Source of the DNA: Bilabrum cf. latius
Taxonomy: Eukaryota
Length of the DNA: 64,000 nt
Direction of reading: 5' to 3'
Assembly: GCA_965178125.1 (NCBI GenBank)
Contig: OZ237769.1
Location: forward strand, 558,001 to 622,000
Shown: positions 1,553 through 61,940 of the stretch, piece by piece
How the letters are laid out: every line of letters begins with the position of its first letter
How positions within the stretch are numbered: position 1 is the stretch's first letter
Translations under genes and position numbers: made by a program
Notes under the pieces: generated by a model
The model's database searches: none
What the model was told of the DNA's origin: nothing
Seen by the model: only the letters and a program-made list of their open reading frames with translations

Positions 1553-3025
1553 TCACACGATCCCGTCGGGATCAACGTCGGGCAGACCAGGCGAGCTGTT
1601 GCCGTCCATGTCGGCTCCATCCGGATCCACTCCTGCACCACTGGACGCGTCCCCGTCGACCTCAGCCCCTTCGACCTCGACCTCACCCCCAGAAGCCTCA
1701 TCCCCAGAAGCCTCACCCTCACCAGCCCCCTGTGCCCCACCATCCGCACCAGGCCCAGCTGCACCCTCACCAGCCCCCTGTGCCCCACCATCCGCACCAG
1801 GCCCAGGCCCAGGCGCAGGCACCGGTCTCCACAGTCTCTTCGACTCCTCCTCGAGCATGCCCAACAGCTCGTGCTCCTTACACTCCGCAAGATCATCGAT
1901 GAACGCTCGATCCAGGACGGGCGCCGATGGCTCGTTGTCCTTGTCGTGCAGCTCGGCCAGGTAGGGGTGCGCCAGGGCCTCTTCTGCGGTGATGCGGCGG
2001 CTGGGATCAAACTGGAATATCTTGTCCAGCAGGTCCAGAGCCAGGGGATTGGCACCTGGGATGAGAGAACCCAGATTGGCTCGCTCGTGGCCGTGGGTGG
2101 ACTAGACCCGCTGGAGAAACCGCCTGGCGGCGTGGTTTGACACAAAGTCAAGCTCGCCGTCCGCCCCACTCGGACACCCCACGGCAGCCAAAATCTTCTC
2201 CAGCTGATCCACTGTGGAATGTCCGGCGAACATGGGCCGCTTCCCCAGTATCTCTGCCAGGATGCACCCGACGCTCCACACGTCCATGGCCCCGGACAGA
2301 GGCCCGCAGCTGATCATCGCTTCGGGCGAGTCGTAGTGGCGAGCGACCACGATTCTGCACCTGTCGGAGTCATCCTCAAGCTCGGAATGCTTCTCAATCA
2401 GATCAACGGGCTTGCCCCCGTCTCCGGTGGGGCGCCCCAGCGCCACTGCCTTGCCGAACTGACACATGGCCAAGTCGCAGTCGGCGTTGCAGTGGACGTT
2501 CCCGGGCTTCAGGTCGCGGTGCACCACACCGGCGCTGTGAATGTACTTGAGACCACGCATCAGTTGGTACGTGAAATACTTCGCGTGGTCGTCGGTGAGC
2601 TCCTGGCGGCTCCTGAGGATGGCGGCCATATCGACGTCCATCCGTGGCGACGCGAAGCACACCTCTCCGCGCTGGGAGGGCCCACCGAGGGAGCCACGGG
2701 GCACGGGTGGTGGTATTATTACATCCGATATGCCCACTATATTTTCATGGCCGCCTACGTGTCGGAGAATCGTGAGTTCTCGCAGACAGACCCGGGCCTT
2801 CCCAAGCCAAACCATTGATGAGTCCTTGGTAGACAGCTTGCTCGTTATCCTCACACGATGCCGAAGTGATGTATCTATGCAGGTGTAAGTGTCGCCGTAT
2901 GACGCAACCTTCACATCCTAGTACCTCTTGTCGACCATCGCAACGCTTCGTTTAGACTTGTGCAGGTAAAATTCTCGCTTGTAGTCGCAACCAGCGCATT
3001 CTGGAGCATGCCCCACCGCAGCCAT
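1553..3025 (-). CDS. MAP kinase family protein, probable pseudokinase (490 aa, 2 in-frame TAG)
   Basis: ATG at 3023-3025. VDKRY*DVK (TAG 2918-2920), HRDLKPGN, DVWSVGCILAE, QRV*STH (TAG 2102-2104), LDLLDKIFQFDPSRRITAEEALAHPYLAELHD. TGA at 1553-1555. One frame throughout. Confidence 0.88.
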
Positions 3026-3219
3026 TGGATAGATAAGCACTTAAGCAATTAGATTGGGTCGCGTACTTCGGCCATCGGATAGATGTGTGCATGTATCCGG
3101 ATGCTCGATCTTACCGCATAACGAACGTTCATGAAGGAGGAAATGTCTGTCCACGGTCGGTCCGTGCGGCGAGTGCAACTCGAACTGCAGCATATTTCCA
3201 GACAGCCACCGGAAGAATA

Positions 3220-5875: not shown

Positions 5876-7034
5876 ATGGAAGATGCAGAAACCATTACTG
5901 GGTACGGTAGAAGACGAGGCAGACCATGTAAGTTCATATAACTCCCGACAAACTCCTATGAAGTTGTTAATTCGCTGTTTCCGTCCATGGAATGCTGTCC
6001 TACTTCATCCAGTGCCACTGTTTCTTACAGAGGGATCGCCTGATGATGATGGTAGTGGTGCAGCTGCAGGAGGATAGCCCTCAAGTGGTTGGGGATCAAG
6101 CGCACCCAGTGGCGCGTCCTCGTAGGAGCCAGGTGATCCGGTCGCAGGGTGGGGATCTTCTGCGGACGCCAGCAGAACCCGACAAATAGACGATACAACC
6201 GTTACTGAGGGTGAGATGTTTGCCAATCTCGTTCTCGTAACGCTGCGTGGTCTACGTTCGCATTCATTGCGCATGTGTCCGGCTCTCGATGCCCAACTCT
6301 TCCCCAATCGGACGTACACTCGTTTGCTCGCCCGCGCAGTGAACATGGAAGGCGTCCGGGATCTGGACGCAGAAGGGAACCCAGACATCACAGAATAGGT
6401 AGCGAATGCCCCCCGTTATGCGGGCCGGCAGGTGCAGACTCTTCGGGAGCTGGACGAGCAGGCGCGTGCGGCCGCGACGGGAGCGACCGAGGCGGGCCCC
6501 TCGGAGAGGGCAGACCTGACGTTGCTGACGAGTGTGCTCAGCGCGCCCAACGCGGTGGCGGAAAACAACGAGCCCTGGGAGTTCACGATGCTCCTCCAGT
6601 CAGTCGCCAGGGAACTGGAAGAGGCGGGGGAGTTGCAACCGGCGCAGGGGGCGGCCCTGAGCGGCGGCCCGGCGGCGAGCAGCTCTGGGCCGGGCGTGGC
6701 TGGAGGGTCCGCGGCTTCGTCTGCCTCTGCGGCGGGGGCCGGGAGCAGGGGCGTGGGTCGAAGGGCGGGTGCGAGCGCGCATGAGGGAGGTGGCGCCGGG
6801 GCGGGAGCGGGTGCTAGTGCTGGTGCTGCCAGCGGTGCGGTGGGAGCAGGGGCCCCGTCATCTAGCACTCCCTCCTGGGCGCGAGAGCTGCAAGGGGGTG
6901 GACAAAGTGGTGCTAGTGGTGGTCAAAGTGGCGGTGGGGATGGAGGGGATGTGTCTAGGAAGCTTGATCTCGGTCTGGACGGGGGGGAGGGCCAGGGGGC
7001 CACTGCTGGGCGAAGGGCGGGCAGGAGAGGGTGA
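5876..7034 (+). CDS. IFT43: Intraflagellar transport protein 43; exons 5876-5927, 6031-6210, 6340-7034; 4 in-frame TAG
   Basis: DLDAEGNPDITE*VANAP...VQTLRELD...DLTLLTSVL...ENNEPWEFTMLLQSV matches the IFT43 core. TAG at 6075, 6123 and 6396, plus one T|AG split by intron 1. TGA stop. Confidence 0.85.
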
Positions 7035-24539: not shown

Positions 24540-24749
24540 AGCCAGTGATTTTAAGAGGGCGAGATAGGAGAGCTTCCGCTCGAGTGTTTCGCTGACTGAT
24601 CGCGCGAAAGCACAAAGTGGGCTAATCCCGATTGTAACTACAAGTCACTGTGCGGACTGGGCAGCGTCTAAACCACGAAGATTGGTGCGTTCCCCGCTTA
24701 TTGAGCACGTACACGGGAATTACTCTTTTTCACGCAGTATTCACAAGTA

Positions 24750-27700
24750 TTGGGCGAACAAACCGAATTGGATTTGCCTGTTTTTTTTAGTTGTGATCCG
24801 GAATCCGAGTATAGCCAGGTGGAGAATGTCAGACTGTGGCAAAAAGTGCTACAACCAGCAAACAACCAGATATCAATTCCGACGATGCTCCACATGGGTC
24901 AGCTATCTCAGAGAGCAGAGCCTGTGGTTGTCATCTCTGTGCAAGCGCTGGCTCGAGTCGGCAAAAGCGCCATGCACGCCGTGCAAAGGTCATTGGTGCG
25001 GTGGCTGGCGAAGTCAATCACGGGCACAGACGCCCATAATATCGCTTCAACACAGCTTAGCGACCAACCGCCATCTTCTGCTACCTGGTCATGCACCGGG
25101 CCCGGATCTGGCAAGCCTAACCCTGTGGCCTCCGATGCTGCTACTAGTAGTGGCCGTGACGGGCAAGCGAGCCCCGGCAGCTCGGATGCGTGCTTCATCC
25201 GGGCTCCTGCTGGCGCGTTTGGTCGTAAAACTCCACTTGTGATTGCGATTCTAGAATGCCAGGGCATGGGTGACAAGGACAAGGACGAGGAGGATGGCGG
25301 GTAGCACGCTGCCTCAGTGCGCATGCCAGCGGCTGCAATGGCTATGTGCACCGGTGGAGTGATCCTATCGAACCACCAGTGGTTGACCGCGCCACCGAAA
25401 ATTCTTCAATCCATCCACAGACTGTCGCAAGTGATGCCGATCGGCAGGGACGGGGCAGGTGCGGCATGCGACCACGATCGCGGTCAACCTGCGAGCGAGA
25501 AGCGGTAGGCATCTGATTCTGATTCCGAGTCCATGCTCCCCACACTTGTCATCGTGGGACAGAGCCCCGACCATGCTATGCACCCCGCCGACCACACCGG
25601 GTTGGGGGAGAGGGAGAGGCAGCTCATGGCAGACGAACCAGAAGAGGAGAGGGAGAGGCAGCTCATGGCAGACGAACCAGAAGAGGAGAGGGAGAGGCAG
25701 CTCATGGCAGACGAACCAGAAGAGGAGAGGGAGAGGCAGCTCATGGCAGACGAACCAGAAGAGGAGAGGGAGAGGCAGCTCATGGCAGTCGAACCAGAAG
25801 AGGAGAGGGAGAGGCAGCTCATGGCAGACGAACCAGAAGAGGAGAGGGAGAGGCAGCTCATGGCAGACGAACCAGAAGAGGAGAGGGAGAGGCAGCTCAT
25901 GGCAGACGAACCAGAAGAGGAGAGGGAGAGGCAGCTCATGGCAGACGAACCAGAAGAGGAGAGGGAGAGGCAGCTCATGGCAGACGAACCAGAAGAGGAG
26001 AGGGAGAGGCAGCTCATGGCAGACGAACCAGAAGAGGAGAGGGAGAGGCAGCTCATGGCAGACGAACCAGAAGAGGAGAGGGAGAGGCAGCTCATGGCAG
26101 TCGAACCAGAAGAGGCACCACCTGCGGGGTCTGACACGAGCCCTGACGAACTGGACGCGAGTAATGTTGCCAGGGGCAGGAATCAAGCCCGTGATGCAAT
26201 CCGGAGGTGCTTTCGGTCGGTGCACATTGCAGCCATCCCCGCGCCTAGAGAGGGGCCTGCCGACCCAGCCGATTCTGACCACAAGGACCCGTCAGCCGCC
26301 GCCCTCGATCCGATCCACGAGTCGTTTGAACGCAGCATTCTGCCGGTGCTGCAGGACGAGCGGCCCCGCCATGTGCTGGGCATGTAGGGGGTGGAGCTGA
26401 GCACGCTCTCCTTCATGCCCGTGATGCAGGCGATCATCGAGCAGGTACAGCGGGGTGGTGGGGAACTGCGGCCCACTGACGTCATGGATCGGATCAAGGA
26501 AGCGACCCGAGACAGCGTCTCGCTCCATCTTGCCACCGCCGTGTCGCAAGCGGCGTGGTCCACAATCTCGAGTGCGGACCTGGATGCAGCGGCGGGTCGC
26601 CCGATCGCCATCTCGGCCGTGAACTCGCTGAAAGAACACCTGGAATCAGCTGCGCTGCCTCTACTGCGGCGAGTGTACCGCGGTGCCATGCGGGAAGACG
26701 CCACCTCCGTGGTGTGCACTGAAGGCGGTCCCGTATCTCGGGCTCTGGGCAGCCTGCGGGCGGCTCTGATCCGATCCTGCGACCGGGCCGAGGCAGAGTC
26801 TCGGGACAAGGTGCGGCGGGCCCTCGCGGTGCAGTCCACCGAGGCGCGGTTCGCGCAAATGCGGGGGCTGGAGGAGGGGCTGACCGATGCACTGAGGGCG
26901 GGTGCGGAGCGGATGAAGGCGCTGCATGATGCGGATCGAGATCGAGATCGAGATCGGGGCACGGGCGCTGACGGCGATACGGTTCATGTTCCAACGCGGG
27001 ACTCTATCGAGAGCGAAATACGCCATCTGCAAGCCAGTCTGACCGAGTATGAGGCCCTGCAGCGCGAGGCCGAGGCACAAGGACCGGATCCGGGCGCCAG
27101 GCTCCGTGCAACACTGGCCGATCTGTGGGCCGGTGAGCTCAAGGAGGGGGCAGCGGCGCTGGCAGGACCTGGGGGGCTGGCGCAGGTGCAGGAAAGCGCC
27201 ACGAGACAGCTGATGCATGCAACAGGTGTACGTATGGTGGACACATCTACAATTATTTCTTCTGAATCCGGTGAAACCGGTGAAGTTGAGGAGGCTTCAG
27301 GTGGGGCCGATGGCGGGGCCGAATCAGGCGCAGGCCATGCTGAACCCAACGGGTGTGACGATGAACTGCCCCAAGGAATCGCATCCAGGCTCTCGCTAGC
27401 ATGCCAAGTGCTGCTTTCGTCTGGTCTGGGTCCGAAATCGCCGCATGGAGCCGCTGGGCTGCCCGACGACGGAGCGTGCGCTCGATTGGCTGCATCCATC
27501 ACCGACACCAAGGACGTGGAGGAATCCGCTGAATCCGTCCGGAAAGATGTTCGTCGGTTCTAGCTGCGCATACAGTCGTTCATTGGTTCGACGCAAAGAA
27601 GTATCAAGAAGCACCAGGAGTACTTGCTCGAGCAGGAGCACTTGCTTGATGCAGAGGCCAAGGCCTATGCAATGGAAAGAGCCATTGCAAAGCGCAAAAA

Positions 27701-27848
27701 GGTGGAGCAAGAAGCCAAAAGACAGCAAGAGGTGAGAGAGCAAGAACGGCGGCGCATGCAACGCGAACTTTCCATCCTGCAGGCAAGGGTGCACGAGGTG
27801 TCTATGCGTGGCAAGGGTCACAAGGAGAGGAAGTGCGTGGTGAGCTAA
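24750..27848 (+). CDS. Divergent guanylate-binding protein (GBP/atlastin-like) with coiled-coil tail and CaaX box; 4 in-frame TAG; start uncertain
   Basis: EPVVVISVQALARVGKS (G1-like) and IAILECQGMGD (G3-like), E/K/R-rich helical tail, KERKCVVS then TAA at 27846-27848. TAG at 25302, 25506, 26385 and 27561 link five track ORFs in frame. Confidence 0.68.
25608..26114 (+). repeat. Coding 39-bp tandem repeat x13 (ERERQLMADEPEE)
   Basis: 507 bp = 13 x 39. Units are identical except GAC>GTC in units 5 and 13. Confidence 0.97.
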
Positions 27849-45934: not shown

Positions 45935-48655
45935 TCAGCGGGACCGGCTGCCTGCCTTGGCCTTGCCCCTCTTGCCCTTGCCACTGGCTTTACCGCCCTT
46001 GCCCTTCTTGCCAGGGGCGGCCTCCTCTGCGGCGCCCCTCCCCTCCTCCCCCTCGTCCTCCCCCTCGTCCTTCTCCTGCTCTTGCTCTTGCATGCCCGCC
46101 CCTCCCTCCGTGGCCTCCTCCCCCTGCACCTCGGTGGTGACCCGCCGGATCTCCCAGTAGAAGAGCCCCAGCAACGAGGCGAAGAACCAAGCCGTGCACA
46201 CCCACCACAGCAGGAACGACAGCGCGCTCCGCAGAACCAGAGGGCTCATCAGCCCGCCCTCATCCTTGCCCAGCCCCTGGCCCTGGCCCTCCACCGCCCC
46301 CTCTCCCCCCACCGCTGCTGCGCTCTCTTCATCCTCCTCTAGCCCCAGCATGTAGGCAGGCACGCCCCTGGCCCAGTCCATGGCGTCCATCAGGAACGAC
46401 TGCTTGCCCCCCGCGGGCACCTCCCCGAATCCCCTCAGGGGACCCCTCCACCCCATCCCATCCTGACCCCACAGCGGGGACGCACCACCCCCCGAACCAT
46501 CTGCGCCCTCGCTCACAGAGCACAGCCTGGTATCCCCCAGCACACCCAGCCTGTCCACCCACCTACAGGCCCCCAGCACCAGGCCATTGGCCCAGCCCCC
46601 GGGCAGCAGAGGCACCCGCCCGTGCCGCGCCAGCATCAGCCCCAGCGCCAGCACCAGCGCCCCCGCCGCCACGTGCTGCAGGGCCAGCACCGCCAGGGTC
46701 AGCCGCTGCCTCACGGAGGCCAGGTTGCACGCGTTGTACACCCGGTCGAAGGAGGGGGGCCTGGGGGCCGCGGCGGTCACCCACAGAGAGTCTCGGATCT
46801 CACGGCGGGCCAGGATGAGGTGGTGCATCGCATGCACGCGCACAGTCACCAGGTGCGCGATGCCCCACGCGATGGCCGCCCACACGCGCAGGGCCAGCCA
46901 CTGCGACTCTGTGAGGAAGACCCTGGACCTGTCCCACGTCCATGGGGACAGCCAGCCGACGGCTGCGTCCGCGACGCTGGCGTACTCGGGTGCGGGGGTG
47001 CGCTGCAATGCGGTGCAGTCCCTGGCCAGCGACTGCGCATCGCACTTGACCAGGTCGGGCGCCAGCACCAGGTCGCCAATCACGGGCTTGATCCACGCGA
47101 GGGCCAGGAAGAGGGGCACGAAGAAGAGCACCATGAGGCACACGCGGCGCCACTGGGGGAGGGCCTCCTTGTCAGGGCCACGGGTGGCTGCAAAATACGT
47201 GCGGGCGCTCCACACGGCGGGCCGGAACAGCAGCGCCGCCACCATGGCGGCGACGAAGGCGGCAAACAGCCTGACGCCAGCAGCTGCAGCCATGTCCGAC
47301 AAGGACCCATCGCCCGGCGCATCCTCCCTGCCCCCCTCCTCCCCCACAGCCGCCCCCGGGACGATATCCAGGCCCCCTTCTGCCCCCGCCCAGTCCCCTG
47401 CCCCGCCATCCCCCTCCTGCTCCTCCTCGTCCCAGTCCCCGTCCAGGTCCAGGTCCCCGAACAGCCCGCCCCCCTCGGAGCCCTCCCCCTGCCCACCCCC
47501 CTGGGCAAGCACCTCGGTCTGGTTGACCCCCGGCAGTGGACCTTCCCCCCCACTGGCATCTCCATCGGCTGCACCTATTTCACCGACGACTTCCCCCTCC
47601 TCGCCCGCACCATCCCCCGAGCCCCACTCCGATGCAGAGGATCCTGCCCCTGCCCCTGCCCCTGCCCCTGCCCCTGCCCCTGCCCCTGCCCCACTGGTGC
47701 CCAGCGCCACTGCCGTCCGCAGTACCATCAGCTCGGCCCTGCCCTTGGCCTCCACCACCGCCTGCACCAGCCTGAAGTCAGCCACCCGGTCCGGCAGAGA
47801 CACGGCCCCCAGCGCCAGCAACAGCCCCAGCAGCCCGTACCCCAGTGCCAGCAGCGCCTCTGTGTTGAAGACTCCCGCGATCGAGTAGGGCAGCCCCTGG
47901 CTGACGAGACTGGCGAAGGCCACCACGGCCAGCACCACAGCGGAGAAGTCTCCCCTCTCTCCGTCACGCACCCACGCCCACAGCTCAGCAAAGGCAGTCA
48001 CGGCCGCGGCCCCCGCCAGGAGGTTCACGAAGAGCTGCAGGACCTGGAAGAGGTACATGCGGTCCCACTGGGTCGTGCGCTGGATGTTGTGAGACAGCGT
48101 GGCAACGGATGCCTCCGTGCTTCCGGGGGCGGCAAACACGCCCGCCTGAGTAGTCGCCGTCCAGTAGTCTGTGAGGCGGTCGAGTACCCGGCCGACGTGC
48201 TGCCGCTCTTTCGGGCCTGCGATGGCAGTCGGGGCCGCGGGGGGCTTCTTCGGCTGCTTCTTGCCTTTCTTTCCTTTCTTTCCACTGCTGCTCGACGTCG
48301 GCTTGTCCGGGACGGCTTCCTCGCCAAACTGCGATGAGCAACTGGGAATGGGCACGCCAACGGGCCGGAGCACATGCAGCTGTAATTGCGGCGCTGTGGC
48401 CTCGCGAGAGCTTCAAATCGCCCATAGTTTAAGAAATAGGTGGGAGATTATTGTATGACCTTTTTAACGTGCACCACTCACCAACACCTTGCGCTGCAGC
48501 AGCACAATTTCCTCCATATTATCTTTCGGTGCAGCTGCCCAGTACTTCAAGCCAGCCAGCATGTGCATCGCAAACGATCGAAATCGGAACACTCGCGACG
48601 CAATCATAAGAACTACAACAAACACTAAGAATTCAGGCGAGATGGCAAGCGCCAT
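45935..48655 (-). CDS. TMEM161-family multi-pass membrane protein; intron 48380-48481
   Basis: SFAMHMLAGLKYW, FVPLFLALAWIKP, LALQHVA and LRSALSFLLWWVCTAWFFASLLGLFY match TMEM161 motifs. TGA stop, no internal TAG. Confidence 0.8.
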
Positions 48656-48771: not shown

Positions 48772-51700
48772 ATGGCCTCCTGGTTTTTTGGAAGACAGCC
48801 AGACAAGTTTAGTTTACAGAATTTACGGTAAGTGGGTGGTATATTGGTCCTTAGAAGTCGTTATCTCCAGTGATATGGGCACGGTTGCACACGTCGCAAA
48901 GGAAATGACTGGCCCATTCCGCCAGCTCCCGCCTTCGAAAAGCTTACCCGGCCTGGGCTTGCATAACCTTTGTAAATACATGCGCTCGTGCGTCTTGAGG
49001 GACGCAACGAGCCGCTTGGATCACTGGTCGGGCCATGACGATTCGCACCTACGATCCCTACCAAAGCCATTGGCACCGTAATTATTTATTTCCATGTCGC
49101 AGAAACTAGCATGATATCCTACTGAAGGCAGCGGTTGAGGCAGGGACTGCAACGGAGCAGCAAGTCGTTGAGGCATTGCGGGAGCTAGGCGAGCTGATGG
49201 TGTATGGCGACAAGCACAACGACCGCTTTTTTGAGTACTTTTGCGAGCGTACCATGATGAGAACGATGGAGAAGATCCTTCGCAACAAGGACTTTGGCGT
49301 GAACGTGCGCGTGCAGGTCATGCAGACCGTGATGATCCTGCTTCAGAACATCTCCAACGAGCGCTCGCTGCTGTACCTGCTGTCCAATCACCAGGTCACG
49401 AGCCTCATGCAGGCCGTGGAGGAGGACAGTGACGAGGAAATGGTCGCTTACTCCGTGTCTCTCCTCAAGCTCCTCTCCCTTAGGCTGGACGAAACCACTG
49501 TGCAGTTCTTCCTGGTCAGAGTGAGCATGGGCGCCATGCAGGGTGCATGCCCCACACACAGCCATGCACCAGGCAGGGCCACGCCGATCCATACGCCCTA
49601 TCGTTTGCTCTCCCATTGTATCACCCACCCCCCTTCTCCAACCCCGGTTTGGTCGCATGTACCCACCGCAGTCAGGCTCCGGTGTGCGATTCCCGCTCTT
49701 CTCCCGTGCCGCCGCCCTCCTCAAACATCCAGAGACCATGACCCGCACCTCTGCCCGCACCATTGTGCTCAACGTGCTCCGCCTCAGGGAACAAGACGTG
49801 GAGTCCTTCCTGGTGGAGGGTCCCTCGGGGGACCTCGTGCTGCACCTCACCAACGCGGCGAGGGCGGCTGCCATCGCGGTGCAGGACACGCTGGACGGGC
49901 GCAGGCTGCAGCAAGCCACGCTCAGGAACCCAGGGCCGGCGGGAGGTGCGGGGACAGGGGCAGGGGCCATGAGCCCCCGGGCAGGTGCGGGCATTCGCCC
50001 CGGGGTTGGTGCCCCTCTGCCCCTCTCCTCCCAGCCCTCCATGCGGCACCTGCCCGTCGGTGTGATGAGTGGCCCAGGGATGCCTCTGCCCCCGCCCTCC
50101 CCCCAGCGGTTGGAGTTCTCCTCTAGCGGACAGGCTCTGGTCCCCGGTAGGTCCTTCAGCTCCTCATCCTCGGGGGGGTCCGCTCCTGGAGCAGATCTGG
50201 TGCAGGGACCAGGACAAGGGCAAGGGCAAAGGGCAGGAGCAGGGGCAGGGGCAGGGATGGGGATGGGGATCCCCATGGTGCATGCCACTCGGGAGGCAGT
50301 GCAGCTCCCCGGCCCGCTGCCCTGGCAGGCCACTTGCGGGCTGCCCTCCCGCGCGGAGGGCGCCTTCGGGGAGGCCCTGGACCATCTGTTCTTCGTGTCG
50401 GACTGCTTGGAGAGCGCGCCCGCGAGACTGGCTGACGACCTGAGGACCTGTCTATGGGTGTCGGCTGCGGAGCCGCTCTTTATCGCGCCCGTGGCGGAGG
50501 CGGCAGGCTACCTGGAAATGGCCAGGGCGGCATGGATCCGGAGTGCGACGCGCGGGAGGAGGAGGGGGAGCGGAAGGCGCATCGCGGGCGCGCTTAGCGG
50601 GGGGTTGCAGCCCACTGCGGCACCCGGCAGTCCGGTGACCCCGCGGCCGTCCGCCCCCGGGGCACCTGCAGCAGATGAGGACAGCGGCGACGGTGGCGGC
50701 AGCAGCAGCAGGGCAGCCTCTGGCGATGGGAACCAGCCCCCCACCCCCATCCGCGCCCCGACCGTCGCGGGTTCCCCCAAAGCCGCGGCGCCTTCTCGCA
50801 CTAGGTCCCAGTCCTCTGTGGGCACGCACTCGCTGGGTGCATCGCACGGTGGCATGCGGCCAGGCGCGGCCCTGGTGCTCCTGGGCTCGGCACTGAGGGT
50901 GCAGACGGACGCCAGGCTGCTGCAGGCGCTGGCGGACCCTCTGCTCCCGCAGGAGGCACCCCCCGCAGATGTCCTGTGGGGGGGTGGGCCTGGAGCAGGG
51001 GCCGGGGCATAGGAGGGCAGCTCCAATGGAGGGTCAGTGCACTCGTCATCCTCGCCAATGGAAGCGTCTCAGCAGGTTGTTCCCCCGTCCCTGCCGCCCC
51101 CGTCTAATGGGAAGGCGCAAGGAACAGACGGTCAGCCGTCCTCTTCCTCGTCTGCAGCACCATCCTCGTCCTCCTCCTCCCCGCTGGCCCCCTTCGGGAG
51201 TCGCAGGGCCGCGGGAAGGTCTCTGCAGCTGGCGCTTGAAGGCGCGGGTGGCCCCCACCTGCGGGGCGCTGCGCTCGCCGCTCTGCACCAGGCCTGGGCG
51301 GCGAGGGACGTGCCTGCGGGTGTGAAGCACTGGCTGGGCATGAGGACGCGGCCATGGGCCAAAGGGGCGGGGCTGGGGGCGCCCCCCTCGGAGGATGCAT
51401 AGGCCTTGGCACAGGAGGATGCATAGGCCCTGGCACAGGAGGATGCATAGGCCCTGGCACAGGAGGATGCATAGGCCCTGGCACAGGAGGATGCATAGGC
51501 CCTGGCACAGGAGGCGAGAGAGGGGCACGCCAGGCAGTAGGGCAAGTTGCAGGCGGCTCTGGTGCGGGTGACATGTGCCAACCCGCCGCCCACCGAGGCC
51601 GAGATGGCGATGGCCCTCTCGTTACTGAGGAGGGTGGCGCCTCTGAGGTGGGCCAGCGGGGCGGCAGAGGCGGTTGCAACCGGTGGGGGTGCTGCGGGTG

Positions 51701-54267
51701 CGGCTGCCGGGAGTGGCACCGCGAGTGGTGGCAGCAGCAGCAATGGCGCGACTACCAATGCGAGAGCGAGTGCAAGCGGAGGGGAGGGCCGGCCTCGTGC
51801 CCGGAGCCGCGCTGGCTCGATGGCGGCTCCGTTCAACCCGGGAGAGGAGGCCCTCGGGCCCCCGCTGCTGCCTCCCGATGCAATGGACCTGATCGCCGAG
51901 GGGCTCCGGAGGGCGGGGCGGGAGCTGGAGGAGGCGCTGCGGCCCGGTGGGGCGGTTCTGCGTGCGCTGGGAGGGGAGGGGGCCGCGCTGGCAGCCATCG
52001 AGGCAGAGGTGCTGCGCGCCACGGGGGGGCCCTCGGGGCAGGGGGCGGGAGGGGCCCGAGTGGCGGTGCGGGAGGCGCAGGCCTGGGGCCTGGATGGGGG
52101 GCTGGAGCCCGGCCCCACTAGGGGGGCAGAGGACCCCCACCTGCTGGCCCGGTGTGTGGGGCTGGATGATGCAAGGTACTGGGGGATGGAGGGTGTGGGT
52201 GTGGGGCTGGATGATGATGAATAGGGAGATAAAGGGAAGGGTGAGGTGGAGGAAAGTACCGGGGGTGCAGTATCTGCGGGGCTGGGGGTCGGCGTAGGGA
52301 GTGCGGGCGAGAACGGCAAGAGGGGCGAGGAATCGAATTAGGAACTGGGCGAGGAAGACGAGGACGAGGAGGAGGAGGGTGGGCAGCAAGGGGGGGGAGC
52401 AGAGCAAGCGGGCGAGTCGGGCCCCACAGATGAGGCACCCTCACCGGATGCTGGTGACGGGCTGGAGAGCCCCAGGGCCCTGAGGCTGCCCCCACCTCTG
52501 CCCCGCAAGGGAGCCTCCTCTGTACCTGATTCGACATCCCATGAGATGGCAGGCACCATCTCCTCCTCCGCCGCTGCATCAACCGCAAGCCCAAGCGCAA
52601 GCACGCCCCGCCTGCTCTGGGCCGCTGCCCCCTGCCTGCTGCACGCGGCCCAGCGCGCGGCGTGGATGGCAGGCATGCCGCAGTGGGAGTGGACCGGGGA
52701 TGCGCTGCAGTGCGATGCACCTGTCCTGTACGCGCCTGACCCGCCCCTCCGCGGCCAGCAGCGGGAAGCCCTGTGGACCGCAGCCCAGCAGGCGGTCACT
52801 CGGGTGCTGGAGGTGCCTCTCGAGTGGAGGGGGCCGCTGGGACCCGCCGAGGCGCTGGCCAGGGCGGTGAGGAGGCTGCTGGCGCTGCGGCGCCTATGGT
52901 TCCGCTGCCACGGGGAACAAGTCGCGGATCGTGCGGTGCGCTCCCTGCGTCCCCCCCTTGGCTCGATCAAGCCGGGGATGGAGTTCACGATAGGCCGGTT
53001 CTCGCCCATCGGTGCCACGCACATGCTGCTGCCTCCCACGAGACAGGGGGCTGCCCTGGCGGGTGTCGACCCCTTGGCGGTGCGACCCCCCATGTCCCCC
53101 GGGTAGGGGTCACAGAGACAGGTGGGGGCGCGCCGGGGGTCGGGGCAGGGGCCGCTTCCCAACGGACACTCCCCGCTCGCGCAGGGGCAGGGGCAGGCAC
53201 CGACCTAGGCGCATGCACAGGGGCAGGGGCCAGGCCCCAGCGCGCTGAGGAGGTCCGTATCAATGCAGCCAGGGGCAGTGGTCCCGGGGGCCAAGGGGCA
53301 GGCGCCCCCGTAGGCCCCTGGACGAGGGGGGGTGCCTACCCCAGGTACCCCCGGGGGTTTGTTGGGATCGAGTGCCCTTGCCACCGACACCGACAGCGAC
53401 AGGTGGTGGGTGGACGCTGCCTCGGTCCTGAGGAAGAGGAGGGTGCCCTCGGAGACTGCCTTCTAGCGGAGGAGGCTTGCTGTGGTGCTCGGCAAGAACT
53501 TCCTCGTGCTGGCCAAGCCGCTGCCCGTGTAGCAGACCCAGACCCAGACCTAGACTCAGGGACAGGGGCAGGGGAGCACACCTTCCTCCCCTCGGGGCAA
53601 TGCCGCCCGGCGGCGCAAGGGAAGAGCCGTCCTGGTGGCCCCGCTCTCGGCGGTCGAGGCGCGGGTGGACCCGGATGGGGCCGCGGTGCTGCACGTGCGT
53701 GTGACGAGTACCAGGCCCTTGCCCCACACCCTGGACCTGGGACCCCCGGGTGTCCCCGAGGTGGGGGAAAGGGCACTCATCACAGCGCTGGAGCAGGAGA
53801 TGGCCGCCGAGGACCGGGCCAGGGAACACATGCGGGCCCTGGCTGGGGGAGGCGATTGGCCGCCGCCCGTGCCACCCCCGGCGCTGGAGGCGGTGCGTGC
53901 GGTGGCGCGGCATGCGGTCCGCAGGCAGGGCGGGGTGCGGCACTGCTCGTTTGTCCTGGTGTTGGACAGCGCCGAGACCGCGGCCAGAGTGGCGCAGGTG
54001 CTAAGCGAGAGGCGGGCGGGGCTCGAGGCGAGACGGTTGGCGGCGCTTAGGGCGCTCCTGTCCTTCGACCCGCAGCGGAGCAGCCCAGGGAGAGACGATG
54101 CGATCGAACTGCAGTCCAATGGCGGTGGCGGTAATTCTTCTCGTGCAGGTGCTTCGGAGACAAAGGTGTCAGCGGCGGCAGGCGATCCAGATCCAGGCCG
54201 CCAAGCGATCGAAGTTGCGGCCAAGATGAAAAGCGAAAGCGTCGGGAATGGCAGCAAGAGCCAGTAA
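48772..54267 (+). CDS. CLEC16A/TT9/GOP-1 family FPL-domain protein (about 1690 aa); introns 48828-49102 and 49521-49671; 16 in-frame TAG
   Basis: DKFSLQNLR, VVEALRELGELMVYGDKH...FFEYFCE, QVMQTVMILLQNI...LYLLSN, RFPLFSRA...HPETMTRTSARTIVLNV. TAG at 49107, 51010, 51400, 51424, 51448, 51472, 51496, 51538, 52222, 52339, 53104, 53206, 53311, 53464, 53530 and 53551. TAA at 54265-54267. Confidence 0.88.
51391..51510 (+). repeat. Coding 24-bp tandem repeat x5 (GAG GAT GCA TAG GCC CTG GCA CAG), EDAQALAQ if TAG=Gln
   Basis: Five units, each with an in-frame TAG. The first unit has TTG instead of CTG (synonymous). Confidence 0.95.
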
Positions 54268-54396
54268 TTGAGTAGTTTACTGTCGCAGGGATGGGCATCA
54301 TTGATTAAATGTGAAATGGCATTTTGACACGCATAAATCCAACGTATACAGAGCAAAATACGTGCATCCCGCAGCCAGGACCGATCAGTTCCACAG

Positions 54397-57300
54397 TCAC
54401 CCTTCGAGCATCTTGCTCACCCGCCCAGCCTCGGTCGCAGGCAGCAGCGCCGCCACGCGCTTCTCCGCCGCGGCAGTGCCCATCGCCTTGCCCACTTCCT
54501 GCAGCGCGCCCGCCAGCGGGGCCCGCAGGCTGGCGGGCACCCTCGCGGACGAGGCCGCCCGAGCGAGCGCCGGGAGCACCTGCCGGTCGACCACCTGCGC
54601 CGCGTGCTTTGGGTCCAGCCGGGGGATGGCCCTGGCCAGCGATGCAAGTGCCGCTGCTTTCACCCTCGCGCTACTGTGCGCCACCCCTCCCACGAGCGGG
54701 GCCAGCAGCGCCCTGGCAGAGGCCCGGTCCTCCAGCAGACGGAGCGCCCTTCCCGAGGCCTGTGCCACCGCTGGCTGGGTGGAGGCGATTCCCTTGGCCG
54801 CCGCTGCCACCACGATGGGGAGGGCCCCATCCAGCGGCTTCCCCTTGAGTGCGTTGCTCTCGATCACGTCTGCCAGCGACAGGGCCGCAGCAGCCGCCAC
54901 CTTGCTCTGCCCGTCTCCAACGTGCTGGGACACCACGTCCAGCACTCGCATCGAGTGGGCCCTCGCGGCGGCTGGCTCCCTCCTGGCGAACTGGGCCAGC
55001 GACTGCACGGCCCCCTGACGAGTGCGCCAGTCCGAGTCCCCCGCCTTGGTCAGGATCGTCTCCAGCTCCTCGGGCATAGGGCCGGATGAATTGCCCCCAC
55101 CGGACCCGCCGCGCCCGCGTCCGCTCCTGCTCTTGCTCCGGCTCATGCCGCGGCGGCCGCGGGGTCCCGTGCCTGCACCACCGTGCGATGCAGCCGCGCC
55201 CTCGGTAGCCCGCTTGCGCATGGCCAGCGCCCTCGACGCCCGCCGGTCCTTGGCCATGGCTGCACCACCGTGCGATGCAGCTGCGGGTCCACCGAGCGGG
55301 GACGCGTCGGCCCCGCTGCCTTCAGCCCCCGCCGTGGGGGTGCTCCTGTCCCCAGCAGGGGTGGGCGGGGGCAGCGACACCTCCGGAGTACCGACCTCGT
55401 CGCTCCCTTCTCCTCCCGCCCCTAGCATGTGACGAGTGCTCCCTGGCCCGAACTGAAAAGCGCCGCCTACTCCCCCGCCGCCTTGCTCGATGCTACCCGG
55501 GGCTCGGCTCCGACTGCTGCTGCGGGCGCTCCTCCGGCGGCTCCGGCTGCTGGCCAACCCGGTGTGACGAGTGAAAGTGCCCCTGCGCGACCCCACGATA
55601 GAGGCGGGGGTATCCCCTCCAGCACCCCCCTCCCCCGCGCCCCCCTCCAGGGGTCCATGCCGCAGGAAGTCGTTCAGCCGCAGAGCCGCCCTCTCCCCCA
55701 GCAGCGCCCTGAGCTCGCCCTCGCTGGCATGCCCCCCCGCCCGCAGCACTGCGAGCGTCCTCTTGCCCGCGTGCCGCACCCCCTCATTCCCGGCCTGCGT
55801 GAACTTGGCGGCCTGTCTGGTGACTGCCTCGACCTGGGCCCCCGAGAGGGCAGCGAGGTGCACCTGGGCCACCTTCTCCACCCATGGAGCGGAGGACAGC
55901 CGGACCAGAGGTTCCGCACTGCGCGCGGCGCCCAGCACCGCCCCAAGCGCGGCCTTGGCAGAGGCCCCCTGCACCACGGCGGACAGCGCCCGCCCTGCCT
56001 CGGCCTGCAAGAAGGCGTTGGAGGCGTCCCCCGCCCTCTTCAGCAGGGGGGGCATGCAGGCGGGCAGCGCGGGCTCAGCCGCCGCCCCCGCCGCGCCCAG
56101 GAGGTCTGCCACCGCCAGCAGCGCGCTCTTTGCGAGGGCCGACCGAGGGGAGCTGACGAGAGGGGCCACCAGTCGGAGGGCCCTGTTGGCGTGTTCCCTG
56201 GCCTGGGGTGGGTGGTGCGCTGCCATCCTCCTGAGCGCAAGCAGAGCCTGCACCTGCTTGCTCCAGGAGGCGGTCTTGCCCTTGGCCTGCGCCTCCACTA
56301 GGGCGTCTGCGGCGTGCTGCCAGGCGGACTGCGGGTTCTTGAGCGGCTGCAGCTGGTCCTTGGGCACATACAGCTGCTGGGTATCGGGGGCACCGGAGGG
56401 AACACCTCCCGATGCCACGCTGGACGCCCCCCCGAATGACCGGGTGGACCCCGCGGGTGACACCCCCCCACCGCCGTTGGGGACACGACCCGCGCCCGAT
56501 CCCCGGCCCCTGCTCCTGCTCCTGCTGCCTGCCCCGGGGGACCCCCTCGGCGCATGCCTGTGGGGGGAGGAAGCACCAGCACCAGCACCAGAGCTAGCGC
56601 TAGCACCCGCACCCGACGAGCGCGAAGGGGAAAGAGAAGGGGAAGGGGACCTTCCCGTTGACACGGGAGGCGGCTTGGATACGCGCCGCTGCAGCCCCCT
56701 GTGCCCTCGCACTGTTCCTTGGGACCCAAAAGGCTCCTAATTCGCCCCCGGTGGAAGCGCGTAGGTGGCTGACGGGTCCGCCATGGGGTGCAGGGGCCTG
56801 TCTGCCGGGTCGCTGGAGGCCTGTCCGAGCGAGTGGGGGGCCAGAGAGGCGGGGCCCATGGAGGGCGAGGCGGGGGGCACGTCCACGTCCATGCCCGCGC
56901 GAGAGCTGGCCCGGGAGCGGGTCCCCACGGAAGGAGAGGGCTGTAGGGGGGCCGTGCGTCTCGCGTCAAGAGGGCCAGCGATGCTGAAGCTGCTGCTGCC
57001 ACCACCGGCCGCTCCCTCTAAATGGCCGCTGGGAGCGTCCACGGAGTCCCGCAGCCAGCTGGGCACCGGCTCCTGCCCCCTCCCAGTACCAGTGGCTCCG
57101 AATCCCCCACCCCCGCGAGACCCCGGTGGCGGCCCCCTGCCCCCATACCCTCCTTGCCCACCTGCCTGCCCCTGCTCCCCGTAGTCGTCATAGTCGTCTT
57201 CCCCGTCATGCTCCCGCACACCGAGCGCAAGTCTCGTTGCCGATCGCTCCCGCGCTGCTCGTCGGCCAGGAGTCGCCCACGCGCTTGTTCCCTGGGCCCT

Positions 57301-60300
57301 CGTAGCCGCCAGGTCCATTCCATCACCATCGCCCCGCTGCTCCTGTCGCTGCCCCCCGCGCGCTGGTGTGGCCAACCCCAGGTCCACAGCAGATCCGCCG
57401 ATACGACCCAGCCCCTCCCTCTACCCGCCGTGCACTCCTCCTCCTCCTCCTCCTCCTCTCCCTCGCCCATCTAGCTGTTCCCCAGCACCCAGCTGCCCTG
57501 CATACGACCCCTGCCGCATGACGGGCGGCCTGGGCCCGCGCCGCAACGGCCCTGCAGACGCTGCAGAGCGGCGCCACGTGCCGCCCCCAGCCCCAGCCCC
57601 AGCGCGGCCCGCCGCAGCCGCCGCCGACACGCCGTCCCCGTGTCCATAGTCCCCCTCCCCGTCCCATCCATCCTCCCCCAGCAGCAGCCCCCGATGAGGT
57701 GCTTCCTCCCCCACCCCTGTCCGCCCCGCCGCCAGTCGCTCGTCCACCCGCTCGGCCAGCGACTGCCTCCGCCTCGCCCTGCCCCCCTCCATGATGCGCT
57801 CGTCCACTTCCTCCGAGATGGACTTGCGGCGGACACGGCCTCGGCTGTTCCCTGGGCCCTGCCCGCCCCTGCTCCTGCCCCCCACGTGTTTCATTTCCTC
57901 CTCGTCCATCCACGACGGCAGCTCCGGCTAGATGCGACCCACGGACGGGCTCCCACTCCTGCGGCCAACCGAGGCGCCCTATGTCTGTGCGCGGGGGCGG
58001 CCCCCTCCCCTTCCACGGGCCCCTCCAGCGCCCACCTCGCCCCCAGCACCCCCCATCCCCCGCAGCAGGTCCAGCTTGTGCTGCTCCAGCAGATCCCCGC
58101 CCCCTGACCCGCCCCGAGATCCCCGTCCCAGCGGCCCGGCCCCCGGCCCGCCGCCCCGCAGCGCCCTCCCTTCGAACCTTGGAGACACGGCCCCCGCCCC
58201 GCCGCCCCGCAGCGCCCTCCCTTCGAACCTTGGAGACACGGCCCCCGCCCCGCCGGCCATGCCCCCCCGCGCGTCATCTTCCTCGAACAGACCGCTGGCG
58301 TCGGCGTCCCGCAGCCAGGAGGGCGCAGCGGACCCCTCCATGGGGTCAACATCCCCAGCCCCGTATCCCCTAGGGGTGGCCAGGGGAGACGCACTCTGTC
58401 CCCTGCCCCTGGAGGGGGTCCCGCCCACGGGCCCAGGTGCCCGTCGCATCGCCTGCGCCGTGAGGTCGCTCGCCCCCGCGCTGCCCCTGCCCCCCTCGCT
58501 GTCAGACCACTGCACGCTGTGGCGACCCCCTGACGAATGCACGCCCCCCCTGTCCCTGTCCCTGTCCCTGTTCTCCGGGCCTCCATCTGCCTCCCTGCCC
58601 GCACCCAAGTTGCCCCCTCTCCCTCTCCCTCTCCCGCCCCCCCGCAGGGGACTCCCCGCCACCACCTGCACCCCGCCGTCCGCCGCACTCGCAGACTGCG
58701 CGCGGAGGGACCGGCGACCGTACCGCGGGCCCCTGCCTCTGCCCACACCCCCGGGGGCCCCTCCCGCAGCAGAGGGAACAGCGTCCAGATGCCTAGATGA
58801 GGGAACAAGTCCTGGTTTCGGCCGGGCCAGCGGGCCTCCCGCCCCCGGCCCTGCAGCAGCCGCAGAGAAGGCCCTTGTTCCCTGGGCCCGCTCCCCCCTC
58901 CTCCCGGCTCTATCGTCCGCTTCCTGCTCCCCTACAGGACGACTAGCGGCAGGACCCCGCCGGGGATCCAATGGACCCGGAGCCGATCCCTCGTGCAGCC
59001 AGGAAGGCACCGAGTCCAGAGAGGAGTCCAGCCCGTCCCTGCGCCCCCGTGCATCCAGCCCCCTCTCCCTCTCCCTCTCCCTCTCGCCCGCCGTAAGGCT
59101 GCTGGACCGGCTACCCGCCGCAGAGACAGGCACGCCCACGGACCCTCCACCCTCCCCCTCTCCTTTGTCCGTGGAAGGCGACCCGCGGCCGATTCCCAGT
59201 CCCAGTCCGATGCCTGCGGTCCCCTTCCACCCCCTCCCTTGTTCCCTGGCCCCGCCCCCCTCCACCTCGTGGCTCCTCGCCGCTCGCCTGAGCGACCCGG
59301 GCCCGCCCCTCCCGCCCCTCCCGGCCTGGTGCACCCCCGCACCCGATCCTCCCGGGCCGTCACCCACACCGACACCCGGCCCGAGCCTGACGTCTTGCGC
59401 GCTCTAGCCCCGAGGCCGTCTTGTTCCCTGGCCCTGGCCCTAGCCCTCGTGCGTGGTCAGGGCACTAGAGAGGGCTCCCCTGTGCCCGCGGCCCAACCCC
59501 GGGCCCCCACCTGACATCACCATCCCCATCTCCATCCCCATCCCGACACCCAGCCCGCCGCTGTGCTCGCTGGCCGCGGAGAGAAGGGTCTGTGCCGTGC
59601 CCAGGGCGCGAGGGGGCGCCTGTGCACCGCCATTCAATGCACTTCCAGACCCCAAGGCAGCCGCTCCGGCCCCCACAAGCGCTGACCCCCTCCTGGGCCC
59701 CTGCTCCTATGCTCCTGTGTCCGGCAACTCCATGCCCACGGTGGCGGGGGACCGACGGGAGGAAGCCATCGACAAACCCCCGCGGGATGCACCCCCGCCG
59801 TGGGGACGGGCAGACCCCGCAGAGGGGGGCACTGACCTGCCCCCTGGCCCGGTGCCATACGGCGCCAAGGACGAGGACCCGTAGCTCAGCTGAGAGCCGG
59901 CCCCGTGGGAAGACACGCTCCCAGCTGCAGCTGCATCCAGCCCGCCTGTGCCCAGCTCTCGCCTGGAGCTGGCCCTCCCCCTGGCCCCCGTTGTTCCCCG
60001 GGTGCTTCCCCCCGCCCCCGCATCGGAGGGCAGCACCACGAACCCCTCGCTCCCAACATAGGCCACCGGTGCTTCTCCACGGACTGCCTGCTGCAGCCTA
60101 TGGCCCAGTCCCCTGCGAGCCTTCTCATGGGCCACCTGCGCGTGCACCTTGCCCTGGTTCCCGTGAGCGCCCAGCAGCCGCTGCTGCTGCCCTTGCTCCG
60201 CCCCCCTCGGCAGCATAGCCCCCGCCGCCCACTCCTCCACGCGACCCGCCGCCATCTCGTCCGCCACCGGGGGTTCGCCCCCTGCTGCTCTTGCTTCACT

Positions 60301-61011
60301 CGTCACACTCCTAGGCCCCAGCACCACAGCCGCCGCCGCGCACACCTCCCTGGCCCCCGCCTGCACCCGGCCCACCGGGTCCGAGAGAGCGGGTGCCGCT
60401 GCCTCCACCACCCGCCGGAGCACCGCCTCCCTGCCCCTGCCGCTGACCGTGCCCTCCCCCGCGGCCAGGGCAGCGGCCGCCAACACCCGCACGGCCTGGT
60501 CCCGCACCCCGCTGCGACGGTGTGTGACGAGCGGGGCCACGGACGGCAGCACGCTCTCCGGGCCGGCTGCCCTGGCCACGGCGGCGAGAGCGCGCAGGTT
60601 AGCATGGCGAACCACCAGCTTGTTGTCCGAGATGCGACCCATGAGGGCGGGCATGAGGGCGTCACGGGCGCTGCTCGCGGAGCGGCTGTCGCCCCCGAGC
60701 GCGCGTTGCCCTCCCGATTCCGCAAGAGCATGGGCTGCATCCAACCCAGCCATCACGCTGCGAAATGATGGGTCCTGTACCGCGCTTGCTACTAGTTTTG
60801 CAATCTCTTCTGCGTGCTGACGAACCTATTCTGTGCCTTGGGCCCCACGAATGCGCTTTGCCAGCTGCTCTGCGGCTTGGGCCGTACCCATGCCGGCTCC
60901 TCGCGATGATCTTCTGCCACCAGCGTCCTTACTTCCTGAGAGCGACTGCAAAACATCATTTCCAACGAAGTCTGACAGCGAATTTTTGGCCTGGCTGCCA
61001 GTTGATGCCAT
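54397..61011 (-). CDS. TOG/HEAT-array microtubule regulator (TOGARAM/crescerin or CLASP-like; about 2200 aa); 8 in-frame TAG
   Basis: AVQDPSFRSV, LMGRISDNKLVVRHAN, WSKQVQALLALRR...VSSPRSALAKSA, SNAFLQAEA, DSDWRTRQGAV...GDGQSKV. TAG at 60826, 59707, 59440, 59404, 57979, 57928, 57421 and 56737. TGA stop. Confidence 0.85.
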
Positions 61012-61940
61012 TCTTGTATTCCGTTCCAACGAAGGGTTCCGTTGGACGCTTGCTCTCGACTACAGACGGTTCAGGGTCCGGTTCGATGCTTTGACGCTTT
61101 AATTAAGTGTGTGCGAAACAGCTTCCACGGCTCAGAAGCCTAGGTAGCGCTGAGCACTAGGCGCAGCCCAGCTGGAGCGGGTGGGTCTGCACACAAAATC
61201 CGTGAGATCGGGCCCGCTGGGGAAGCAAATTTACCTCTGAAATATATGTTGAATAGCGCCAAACAATATAAGTCGCTTCAATGTTTCACTGGGCGGTGTT
61301 TGCACCAATTTTCCCGACGTGTGCTGCCGGCGGCCGAAACCGCTGCTCATGCCAGTGGCCCGGCCCGGAGGGAGCCTTCGCTTCGGCGCCGGCGCCGGCA
61401 CTGGTGGTCATCACCAGCCTGGGCGATCACAGGCCCGATCGCTGGCATACTAGCGAGTGTAAGCACAATGTAATCTATCCATGTCTGCGAGGCATACCCG
61501 AATGCCTGGAGATCGCCAGAGGTCCGGTTCTCCCTCGCCGAGAGAGGGGCCTACTGCCAGTGTGCTTGCAACCAGCACGGCAATTGGATCGATCTACTTG
61601 GCGCCAGCGTGAAGGCTGTGAGACGCAAGATGGGGGCTAGCACGTCCCTCGCGTCTCCCTTATTGTTGCTGCACCTCGTCGCTGTATTGCTGGATCCTCA
61701 TGGAGTGCCACCTGGCCCCACAGCACGCCACCTGGTCCTTGGCGGGGACTCGCAGGTGCATTCGAGGCCCCCTGACCGCCAGTCGTGCAGTCACGTAGAA
61801 TCATCCATGCCCCACACTGTGGCACGTCACACTGACCCGCGCCGTGTCAAGATATGCCCCTTGATCGCTGGAGACTCGTGTCCTGGCACTACTGACCACC
61901 CCAAGCCATGCCATGCCATGCCATGCCAACTCCCCGTCCG

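Follow-up and report, generated by a model that had tools for sequence, protein, structure and literature searches.

In-frame TAG as a sense codon, most probably for glutamine, in a GC-rich eukaryotic locus

Genes and repeat arrays of the locus

The subject of this analysis is a 64,000-nucleotide stretch of DNA from Bilabrum cf. latius (contig OZ237769.1, positions 558,001 to 622,000, forward strand; hereafter the window), and in particular the TAG triplets that lie in frame in its genes, one of them within a glutamine-coding microsatellite of a CLEC16A-like gene. The GC content of the window is 65% overall, with a range of 53-74%, and 14 of its genes have homology support. Pfam profiles match FPL/CLEC16A, TOG, BK channel, START, RabGAP-TBC, MAPK-like kinase, EF-hand, TMEM161AB, sulfatase, Vps26 and IFT43; eL27 is recognized from a KOW match of 21.5 bits, below the cut-off of 22.3, together with a lead from a protein atlas, which confirmed the family for both BK and eL27.

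The CLEC16A-like gene lies on the plus strand and ends with a large terminal exon of 4.6 kb (49684..54267, the start being approximate and taken from the FPL match), which closes at a TAA (54265-54267). The exon falls in a stop-to-stop frame of 1580 codons (49525..54267) that contains no TGA or TAA and 15 in-frame TAG. The FPL domain (PF09758) is N-terminal, with profile positions 1-113 matching an upstream exon (49176..49517, 119.9 bits) and positions 117-148 matching the start of the TAG-bearing frame (27.7 bits). Since the upstream exon is in another frame than the terminal exon, an intron of approximately 150 nt separates them. The region around the microsatellite is coding in the frame given in the preliminary description: the frame continues the FPL domain, GC content by codon position is 0.69/0.61/0.83 in the surrounding 450 nt, and the same 450 nt hold five TAG in the coding frame and zero in the other two. 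The standard code would cut this gene into frames of 495, 254 and 237 codons, among others. A homologue search with the C-terminal 260 residues of the protein found none, and the single-sequence structure prediction of residues 1285-1545 is too poor (mean predicted local distance difference test score of 49) for the strand-loop-strand around the repeat to count as evidence.

The microsatellite is a (Gln-Thr)4(Gln-Gly)3 array at 53533..53574 on the plus strand. Its letters were re-read from position 53530 as TAG CAG ACC CAG ACC CAG ACC TAG ACT CAG GGA CAG GGG CAG GGG, exactly as first described. The leading TAG (53530-53532, codon 1336 of the frame) lies directly 5' of the array and outside any repeat slot, and the second (53551-53553, codon 1343) occupies a CAG slot, the fourth of seven Gln slots. 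The minus-strand twin that had been placed near 59425-59445, GGC TAG GGC CAG GGC CAG GGA, was found at 59446-59426 as a (Gly-Gln)3 array, with its TAG (59443-59441) in the first of three Gln slots. It belongs to a frame of 2233 codons (54397..61098, minus strand) with nine in-frame TAG and no TGA or TAA before its terminal TGA (54399-54397). The earlier designation of this gene as the TOG gene is confirmed by a CEP104-like_TOG match (29.2 bits) at one end, and a CLASP_N match (25 bits, below cut-off) lies at the other. Tandem Repeats Finder reports the CAGACC unit at 53533-53559 (period 6, 4.5 copies, 85% matches) and the complement of CCAGGG at 59426-59447 (period 6, 3.7 copies, 93% matches). 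The remaining irregularities of both arrays are synonymous third-base changes only (ACC/ACT, GGA/GGG and GGC/GGA).

A third repeat, with a 24-nt unit in 5.2 copies (51390..51514, plus strand, 99% matches), encodes EDA-TAG-ALAQ, or EDAQALAQ with TAG read as Gln, and five copies contain an in-frame TAG each. It arose by recent expansion of a unit in which the reassigned codon was already present.

TAG as a sense codon

Under the standard code, the longest stop-to-stop frame of the window has 845 codons. With TAG opened, the longest frames reach 2233, 1960, 1580, 1467, 1306, 1284 and 1047 codons; opening TGA, which is twice as common as TAG, gives a longest frame of 1175, and opening TAA leaves the value of 845 unchanged. 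Eight TGA/TAA-free frames (620-2233 codons each; 11,497 in total) hold 66 TAG, 0 TAA and 0 TGA in the coding frame, versus 45 and 53 TAG, 14 and 30 TAA, and 137 and 154 TGA in off-frames 1 and 2 (together 44 TAA and 291 TGA). TAG is therefore at least as frequent in frame as out of frame, and TGA and TAA are excluded. The 14 coding frames (14,487 codons) contain 81 TAG and 112 CAA; these frames run from stop to stop, and some of the 81 TAG lie in leaders or unrecognized introns. TAG is scarce in conserved genes with high GC at third codon positions, with one in the 1306-codon BK frame and none in TMEM161AB, the Vps26 exon or eL27. The gene at 22782-24644 on the minus strand, an example of the lower-GC or fast-evolving genes in which TAG is most frequent, has nine TAG versus 14 CAG.

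TAG codons lie inside the IFT43, EF-hand, sulfatase, TOG and kinase matches, opposite residues rather than gaps in the homologues. The IFT43 domain carries one in the context DITE-TAG-VANAP (6396..6398, plus strand). Two are located in the first EF-hand of a calcineurin-B-like protein (35398-35396 and 35371-35369, minus strand), and another follows a conserved 'RY' at the start of the MAPK-like kinase domain (codon 41; 2918..2920, minus strand). The 620-residue protein of the gene at 22782-24644 has a single homologue in an exhaustive search of 1.8 billion representatives: P0003, a 103-residue prediction from a public assembly with 54% identity, whose alignment runs gap-free over four TAG of the gene. 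The predicted end of P0003 lies exactly opposite the window TAG at 23495-23493, which suggests that P0003 may come from a relative that shares the code, with its gene model truncated at TAG. Two other searches returned little: the homologue search with the EF-hand protein gave one distant match and was swamped by low-complexity words, and among metagenome contigs searched with the BK protein none of 543 pattern matches was confirmed as a related locus.

Contigs from several sequence runs, denoted X1 and X5 to X7, bear on splicing. A 153-nt intron of the TMEM161AB-like gene (GTGAGT..CAG, 48329..48481, minus strand) is skipped by contigs of X5, X6 and X7, and a second junction, a 188-nt GTAAG..CAG segment, is skipped by contigs of X5 and X7; X1 contigs are colinear with the window at both. 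The preliminary description would have been contradicted by splicing out of the microsatellite. An X5 contig (52372-54291) and an X6 contig (53163-53562) span it with no gap and 0 differences from the window, so there is neither splicing nor TAG-to-CAG editing at that site. No X5-X7 piece among those listed covers 49780-50278 or 51437-52371 of the CLEC16A-like gene, from which nothing was concluded. The coverage of TAG codons in spliced material is supportive, not decisive.

These observations bear directly on whether the standard code could hold, which would put the TAG codons in introns, in untranslated regions or in pseudogenes and make the array a mutated non-coding microsatellite. High GC content does produce long chance frames on both strands, and many of the TAG are followed by G and so resemble AG|G splice acceptors. 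The standard code would nevertheless need 66 TAG without a single TGA or TAA in 11,497 codons, for which the other frames predict about 168, and dozens of in-frame introns free of stops. The two verified introns are AT-richer and contain TAA triplets. TAG also lies within contiguous Pfam domain matches and a gap-free homologue alignment, and the TAG codons are retained in contigs of the runs that show spliced junctions. The standard-code reading is close to refuted. TAG is a sense codon in the window, and the weight for this rests on frame statistics and homology, mainly outside the repeat.

Open frames of 300-900 codons, antisense or off-frame, overlie many real genes of the window, as expected at high GC; one of them (45935..48337, plus strand) covers the TMEM161AB gene of the minus strand. 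Such chance frames make frame length a poor guide, and a GC content lower at second than at third codon positions, together with homology, is needed to recognize genes.

Termination

The ends of ten homology-supported genes are formed by TGA in nine and by TAA in one, the CLEC16A-like gene, and by TAG in none. GC content falls after the stop codons, from 0.64 to 0.39 for the CLEC16A-like gene and from 0.74 to 0.43 for the TOG gene. When TAA is opened, no gene gains more than 105 codons and no frames are joined, and no in-frame TAA occurs in the 14,487 codons of the 14 frames. As neither TAA nor TGA occurs in frame and both end genes, only TAG is reassigned. A code of type 6, in which TAA and TAG both specify Gln, is ruled out by the 0 in-frame TAA and by the gene that ends at TAA before an AT-rich spacer.

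The same gene ends speak to an ambiguous code, in which TAG would be Gln inside genes and a context-dependent stop elsewhere, as in Condylostoma, karyorelict ciliates and Blastocrithidia. The frames were defined with TAG open, and a gene ended by TAG would pass unnoticed unless homology marked its end; yet none of the ten homology-supported genes, a small sample, ends at TAG, and their nine TGA and one TAA each precede a fall in GC content. We consider this arrangement quite unlikely.

The convergent stops of the CLEC16A-like gene (TAA) and the TOG gene (TGA) are 129 nt apart (54268-54396), with GC content of 0.39-0.43 in the 100 nt after each, so that the 3' untranslated regions must be very short or overlap. 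Contigs of X5 stop at 54291 and restart at 54375 between these stops, while those of X1 are continuous; this pattern comes from a single study and was not used to place transcript ends. Scanning of the window with Rfam at gathering thresholds gave 0 matches.

Identity of the encoded residue

TAG was counted in the Gln slots of the 14 coding frames, where sites completing a period-2 pattern with two Gln were scored with a one-sided binomial test. TAG accounts for 3 of 87 such sites against 0.51 expected (5.9-fold, P = 0.014). The highest amino acid is Leu (1.9-fold), followed by Lys at 1.8-fold, and Ser stands at 0.63-fold. Under a stricter rule, which scores an interior exception in a four-slot array, TAG is one of six cases, the others being R, V, K, P and G.

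The composition of the residues within five positions of TAG was assessed by within-gene permutation. Gln is enriched 1.67-fold (p = 0.001), a value that becomes 1.51-fold (p = 0.010) once tandem copies are collapsed, and Lys about 1.4-fold. When calibrated on 57 ordinary codons, this test puts the codon's own residue at the top for 26 of them and among the top two for 37. In the calibration, the Gln value around TAG (1.66) compares with 1.39 around CAG and 1.09 around CAA. The corresponding values are 1.37 around TAG versus 1.92-2.25 around its own codons for Lys, 1.76 versus 2.45 (TAC) for Tyr, and about 1.06-1.08 versus 1.34-1.63 for Ser, which is first or second around all six of its own codons. 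A comparison of the sequence flanking each TAG with the rest of the coding sites returned only tandem copies and chance low-complexity matches and was uninformative.

Five TAG columns in Pfam domains were scored with TAG translated as each of nine of the 20 residues or as X. For the two EF-hand_1 columns the scores are X 60.9, Q 64.5, K 64.8, R 64.7, T 63.2, S 62.7, E 62.1, Y 61.7, L 60.1 and W 54.1 bits, and for IFT43 they are X 71.9, Q 74.1, K 73.2, R 72.7, T 72.6, S 72.6, E 72.5, Y 71.3, L 70.9 and W 70.8 bits. The Sulfatase column gives X 89.9, Q 90.2, K 89.9, R 90.1, T 90.9, S 90.6, E 89.6, Y 91.0, L 89.3 and W 87.9 bits, and the TOG column X 27.3, Q 28.1, K 27.8, R 26.8, T 27.8, S 27.4, E 28.4, Y 26.9, L 26.2 and W 26.1 bits. 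Gln ranks first of the nine in summed gain over X (Q 6.9, K 5.7, T 4.5, R 4.3, S 3.3, E 2.6, Y 0.9, L -3.5 and W -11.1 bits).

In individual homologues, the residues opposite TAG are Q (8bbe_F), Q (8fgw_F) and K in three solved chains of IFT43, and Q (p38) and T (fungal MAPK) at codon 41 of the kinase. The EF-hand protein has K, S and R opposite one TAG and S, T and Q opposite the other, and a TAG stands opposite Q in EF-hand 4 of calmodulin. The three sulfatase positions show A/A/H, K/K/T/V and S/V/A/S/R, and the gene at 22782-24644 shows E, K, V and K. In a BLOSUM62 tally over the 11 alignable columns, Tyr, Leu and Trp fall below -17.

The homology tests speak against Leu, Trp and Tyr, and Glu does poorly throughout. 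Ser is borne out neither by composition nor by the slot test, and in the Pfam columns it trails Gln by 3.6 bits. This bears on a code like that of the ulvophycean green alga Scotinosphaera, in which TAG would be Ser and TAA and TGA the stops. The cited part of the description of that alga (PMC8271138) gives the same architecture, with TAG as the only reassigned codon and TAA and TGA as stops, and our impression is that the GC-rich low-complexity proteins of the window are not unlike green-algal ones. Ser also stands at 3 of the 11 homologue columns, including calcineurin B, where 'SGSLS' lies opposite 'SG-TAG-LS'. Its summed Pfam gain of 3.3 bits is set against 6.9 for Gln, however; its enrichment around TAG is below that around any of the six Ser codons; it is depleted in the Gln slots; and TAG is one transition from CAG exactly at the repeat slots. 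The Ser reading is disfavoured, and we hold it to be very unlikely.

Several results weigh against Gln, or against the strength with which TAG can be read. The repeat is thin evidence taken alone, with two to three cases in 64 kb and P of about 0.01-0.03. A C-to-T change in a CAG microsatellite yields TAG in coding and non-coding DNA alike, so the bare pattern says no more than chance. The alternation of TAG with CAG is real and gives a modest coding signal but is weak by itself. The enrichment of Tyr around TAG is as strong as that of Gln (1.74-1.88-fold, with p = 0.05-0.06 for 1.74-1.80-fold), and in a likelihood profile of the immediate neighbours (±1, ±2) no residue beats background and Gln is 16th of 20. 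The Pfam test is limited to nine residues and five columns, of which the Sulfatase and TOG columns hardly discriminate, and with EF-hand_7 replacing EF-hand_1 both R (58.6 bits) and K (57.7 bits) exceed Q (56.2 bits). The BLOSUM62 tally is led by Lys (K 14.9, Q 7.7, E 6.1, R 3.3 and S 2.5), and the homologues show Q at 3 of 11 TAG columns, K at 5 of 11 and S at 3 of 11. One of the counted codons, the TAG at codon 7 of the EF-hand frame, is upstream of the ATG. The RNA nature of X5-X7 is inferred from the spliced junctions, the runs being labelled 'RNA?' and X5 'probably DNA', and no CAG/TAG polymorphism was seen between runs, for which no variant letters are listed. A tRNA scan of the window found 0 tRNA genes, and eRF1 is not in the window.

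Lys equals or surpasses Gln in the homology tests but fails those of composition and slots. Were TAG to specify Lys, or some other polar residue (Arg, Thr or Glu, for example), and UAA and UGA to remain stops, the TAG codons in the repeat slots would be real Gln-to-Lys changes in a tolerant disordered loop. The BLOSUM62 tally, the 5 of 11 homologue columns, the EF-hand_7 scores and the enrichment around TAG all favour this possibility. The summed Pfam gain is lower for Lys than for Gln (5.7 versus 6.9 bits), and Lys is clearly less enriched around TAG than around true Lys codons. In the slot test Lys reaches 1.8-fold against 5.9-fold for TAG, and the best-conserved column, in 'QVA.AP' of IFT43, holds Q. 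No nuclear code with UAG as Lys appears in the cited portions of PMC11687900 and PMC5304391, which mention one ciliate with UAA as Lys. Lys, or another residue of this group, is in our estimate unlikely.

Gln is the sole residue contradicted by no informative test. Gln is also the usual fate of a reassigned UAG. Given that TAG is sense, we consider its assignment to Gln to be well favoured. The earlier proposal that TAG is translated and behaves like Gln is in this sense supported, mainly by frame statistics and homology, with Gln as the best-supported residue, short of proof.

Proposed code and its origin

The window is probably nuclear DNA from a flagellated eukaryote, GC-rich and with introns, in which UAG is a sense codon, most probably for Gln, and UAA and UGA are stops. 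In such a code, a tRNA-Gln whose anticodon had changed from CUG to CUA would read UAG, and eRF1 would no longer recognize UAG while still recognizing UAA and UGA, so that UAG would never terminate. A CAG-to-TAG transition would be silent, and TAG would therefore accumulate as a minor Gln codon; if it is Gln, it makes up about 13% of the Gln codons in the 14 frames (81/636, with the proviso on stop-to-stop frames given above). TAG is commonest in lower-GC or fast-evolving, low-complexity stretches and in coding microsatellites, and rare or absent in conserved, strongly biased genes. Where a microsatellite is maintained as (Gln-X)n, C-to-T changes that are silent would persist, as in the (QT)n(QG)n array.

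Other features of the genes

The MAPK-like kinase (1553-3040, minus strand; Pkinase, 122.6 bits) appears to be degenerate in its catalytic motifs. The 'CDFG' of homologues is 'CQFG' here, 'ASYGDTYTC' replaces the glycine loop and the alignments show no Lys at the 'AIK' position, while HRD is kept; the protein may be a pseudokinase. The arylsulfatase-B-like gene (19785-22068, minus strand) comprises at least five exons in shifting frames and three in-frame TAG. The closest solved relative of its last exon is N-acetylgalactosamine-4-sulfatase (1fsu_A, E = 3.7e-21), and against longer proteins this exon gives three matches with about 30% identity. The eL27 gene (4846-5430, minus strand) has two exons and no TAG. 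Judged by eye, it seems to differ from the usual eL27 sequence by an insertion after 'RKVTRKM'. In the frame at 24705..27848 on the plus strand, positions of about 25500-26200 encode approximately 13 tandem copies of the 13-residue unit ERERQLMADEPEE, of which one or two carry V for D; the protein has no Pfam match.

Relation to known codes and implications

The nearest counterpart is Iotanema spirale (Fornicata), an anaerobic endobiotic flagellate in which, according to the cited part of the transcriptome study of Panek et al. (2017, PMC5304391), UAG is Gln, UAA and UGA are stops, UAG makes up about 8% of Gln codons and Gln was proven by phylogeny-informed likelihood. On that account, the likeness lies in UAG as the only reassigned codon and in its use, probable in the window, as a minor Gln codon (about 8% there and about 13% here). 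The difference is that a transcriptome and proof of Gln are available there, whereas GC-rich genomic DNA (53-74% GC) with Gln only favoured is available here.

UAG alone is Gln in Protocruzia tuzeti and two phyllopharyngean ciliate lineages, as given in the cited section of McGowan et al. (2024, PMC11687900). As far as these excerpts describe them, NCBI table 15, Protocruzia tuzeti and the phyllopharyngeans share their codon table with the one proposed for the window. The window differs from the ciliates with UAG-only codes in its 65% GC, its GT-AG introns of 153-188 nt and its very long low-complexity proteins; ciliate genomes are usually AT-rich.

In the green alga Scotinosphaera sp., TAG is Ser, TAA and TGA are stops and GC-ending codons are preferred (Li et al. 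2021, PMC8271138, in the part cited). The window resembles this description in that TAG is the only reassigned codon, TAA and TGA are the stops and GC-ending codons are preferred. It differs in the residue, Ser being below Gln here in the Pfam-column, neighbour-enrichment and slot tests. Code 6, in which UAA and UAG are both Gln, is listed in the cited passages of PMC11687900 and PMC8271138 for many ciliates, Dasycladales, Trentepohliales, Cladophorales, hexamitid diplomonads, Streblomastix and Amoeboaphelidium. The window has in common with it the probable change of UAG from stop to Gln, under which a CAG/TAG swap would be silent, and differs in that TAA is not sense. Amoebophrya sp. ex Karlodinium was rejected as a candidate source, since the window has neither its code nor a low GC content.

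Nuclear codes that split UAG from UAA are very rare, the excerpted sources naming Iotanema, one rhizarian, Scotinosphaera and a few ciliates. In the portions of the literature retrieved by our search, no GC-rich non-ciliate eukaryote with UAG alone as Gln is reported apart from Iotanema, the GC content of which was not found in the text. The code of the window is probably a further case of a known kind of code.

The array shows what coding microsatellites can and cannot tell about a reassigned codon. For gene prediction, the standard code fragments every large gene of the window, and standard-code calls on this genome are truncated; the main value of the finding is as a pointer to the code and a warning on such calls. 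That the window represents a lineage not yet reported as deviant, which is GC-rich, flagellated and non-ciliate and has independently uncoupled UAG from UAA and assigned UAG to Gln, is a tentative proposal that we regard as possible. If true, it would be a genome-level addition to the few UAG-only reassignments, and high GC content, with rare TAA and common TGA stops, could be tested as an enabling condition. A further genomic case would permit a direct search for the suppressor tRNA and for changes in eRF1.

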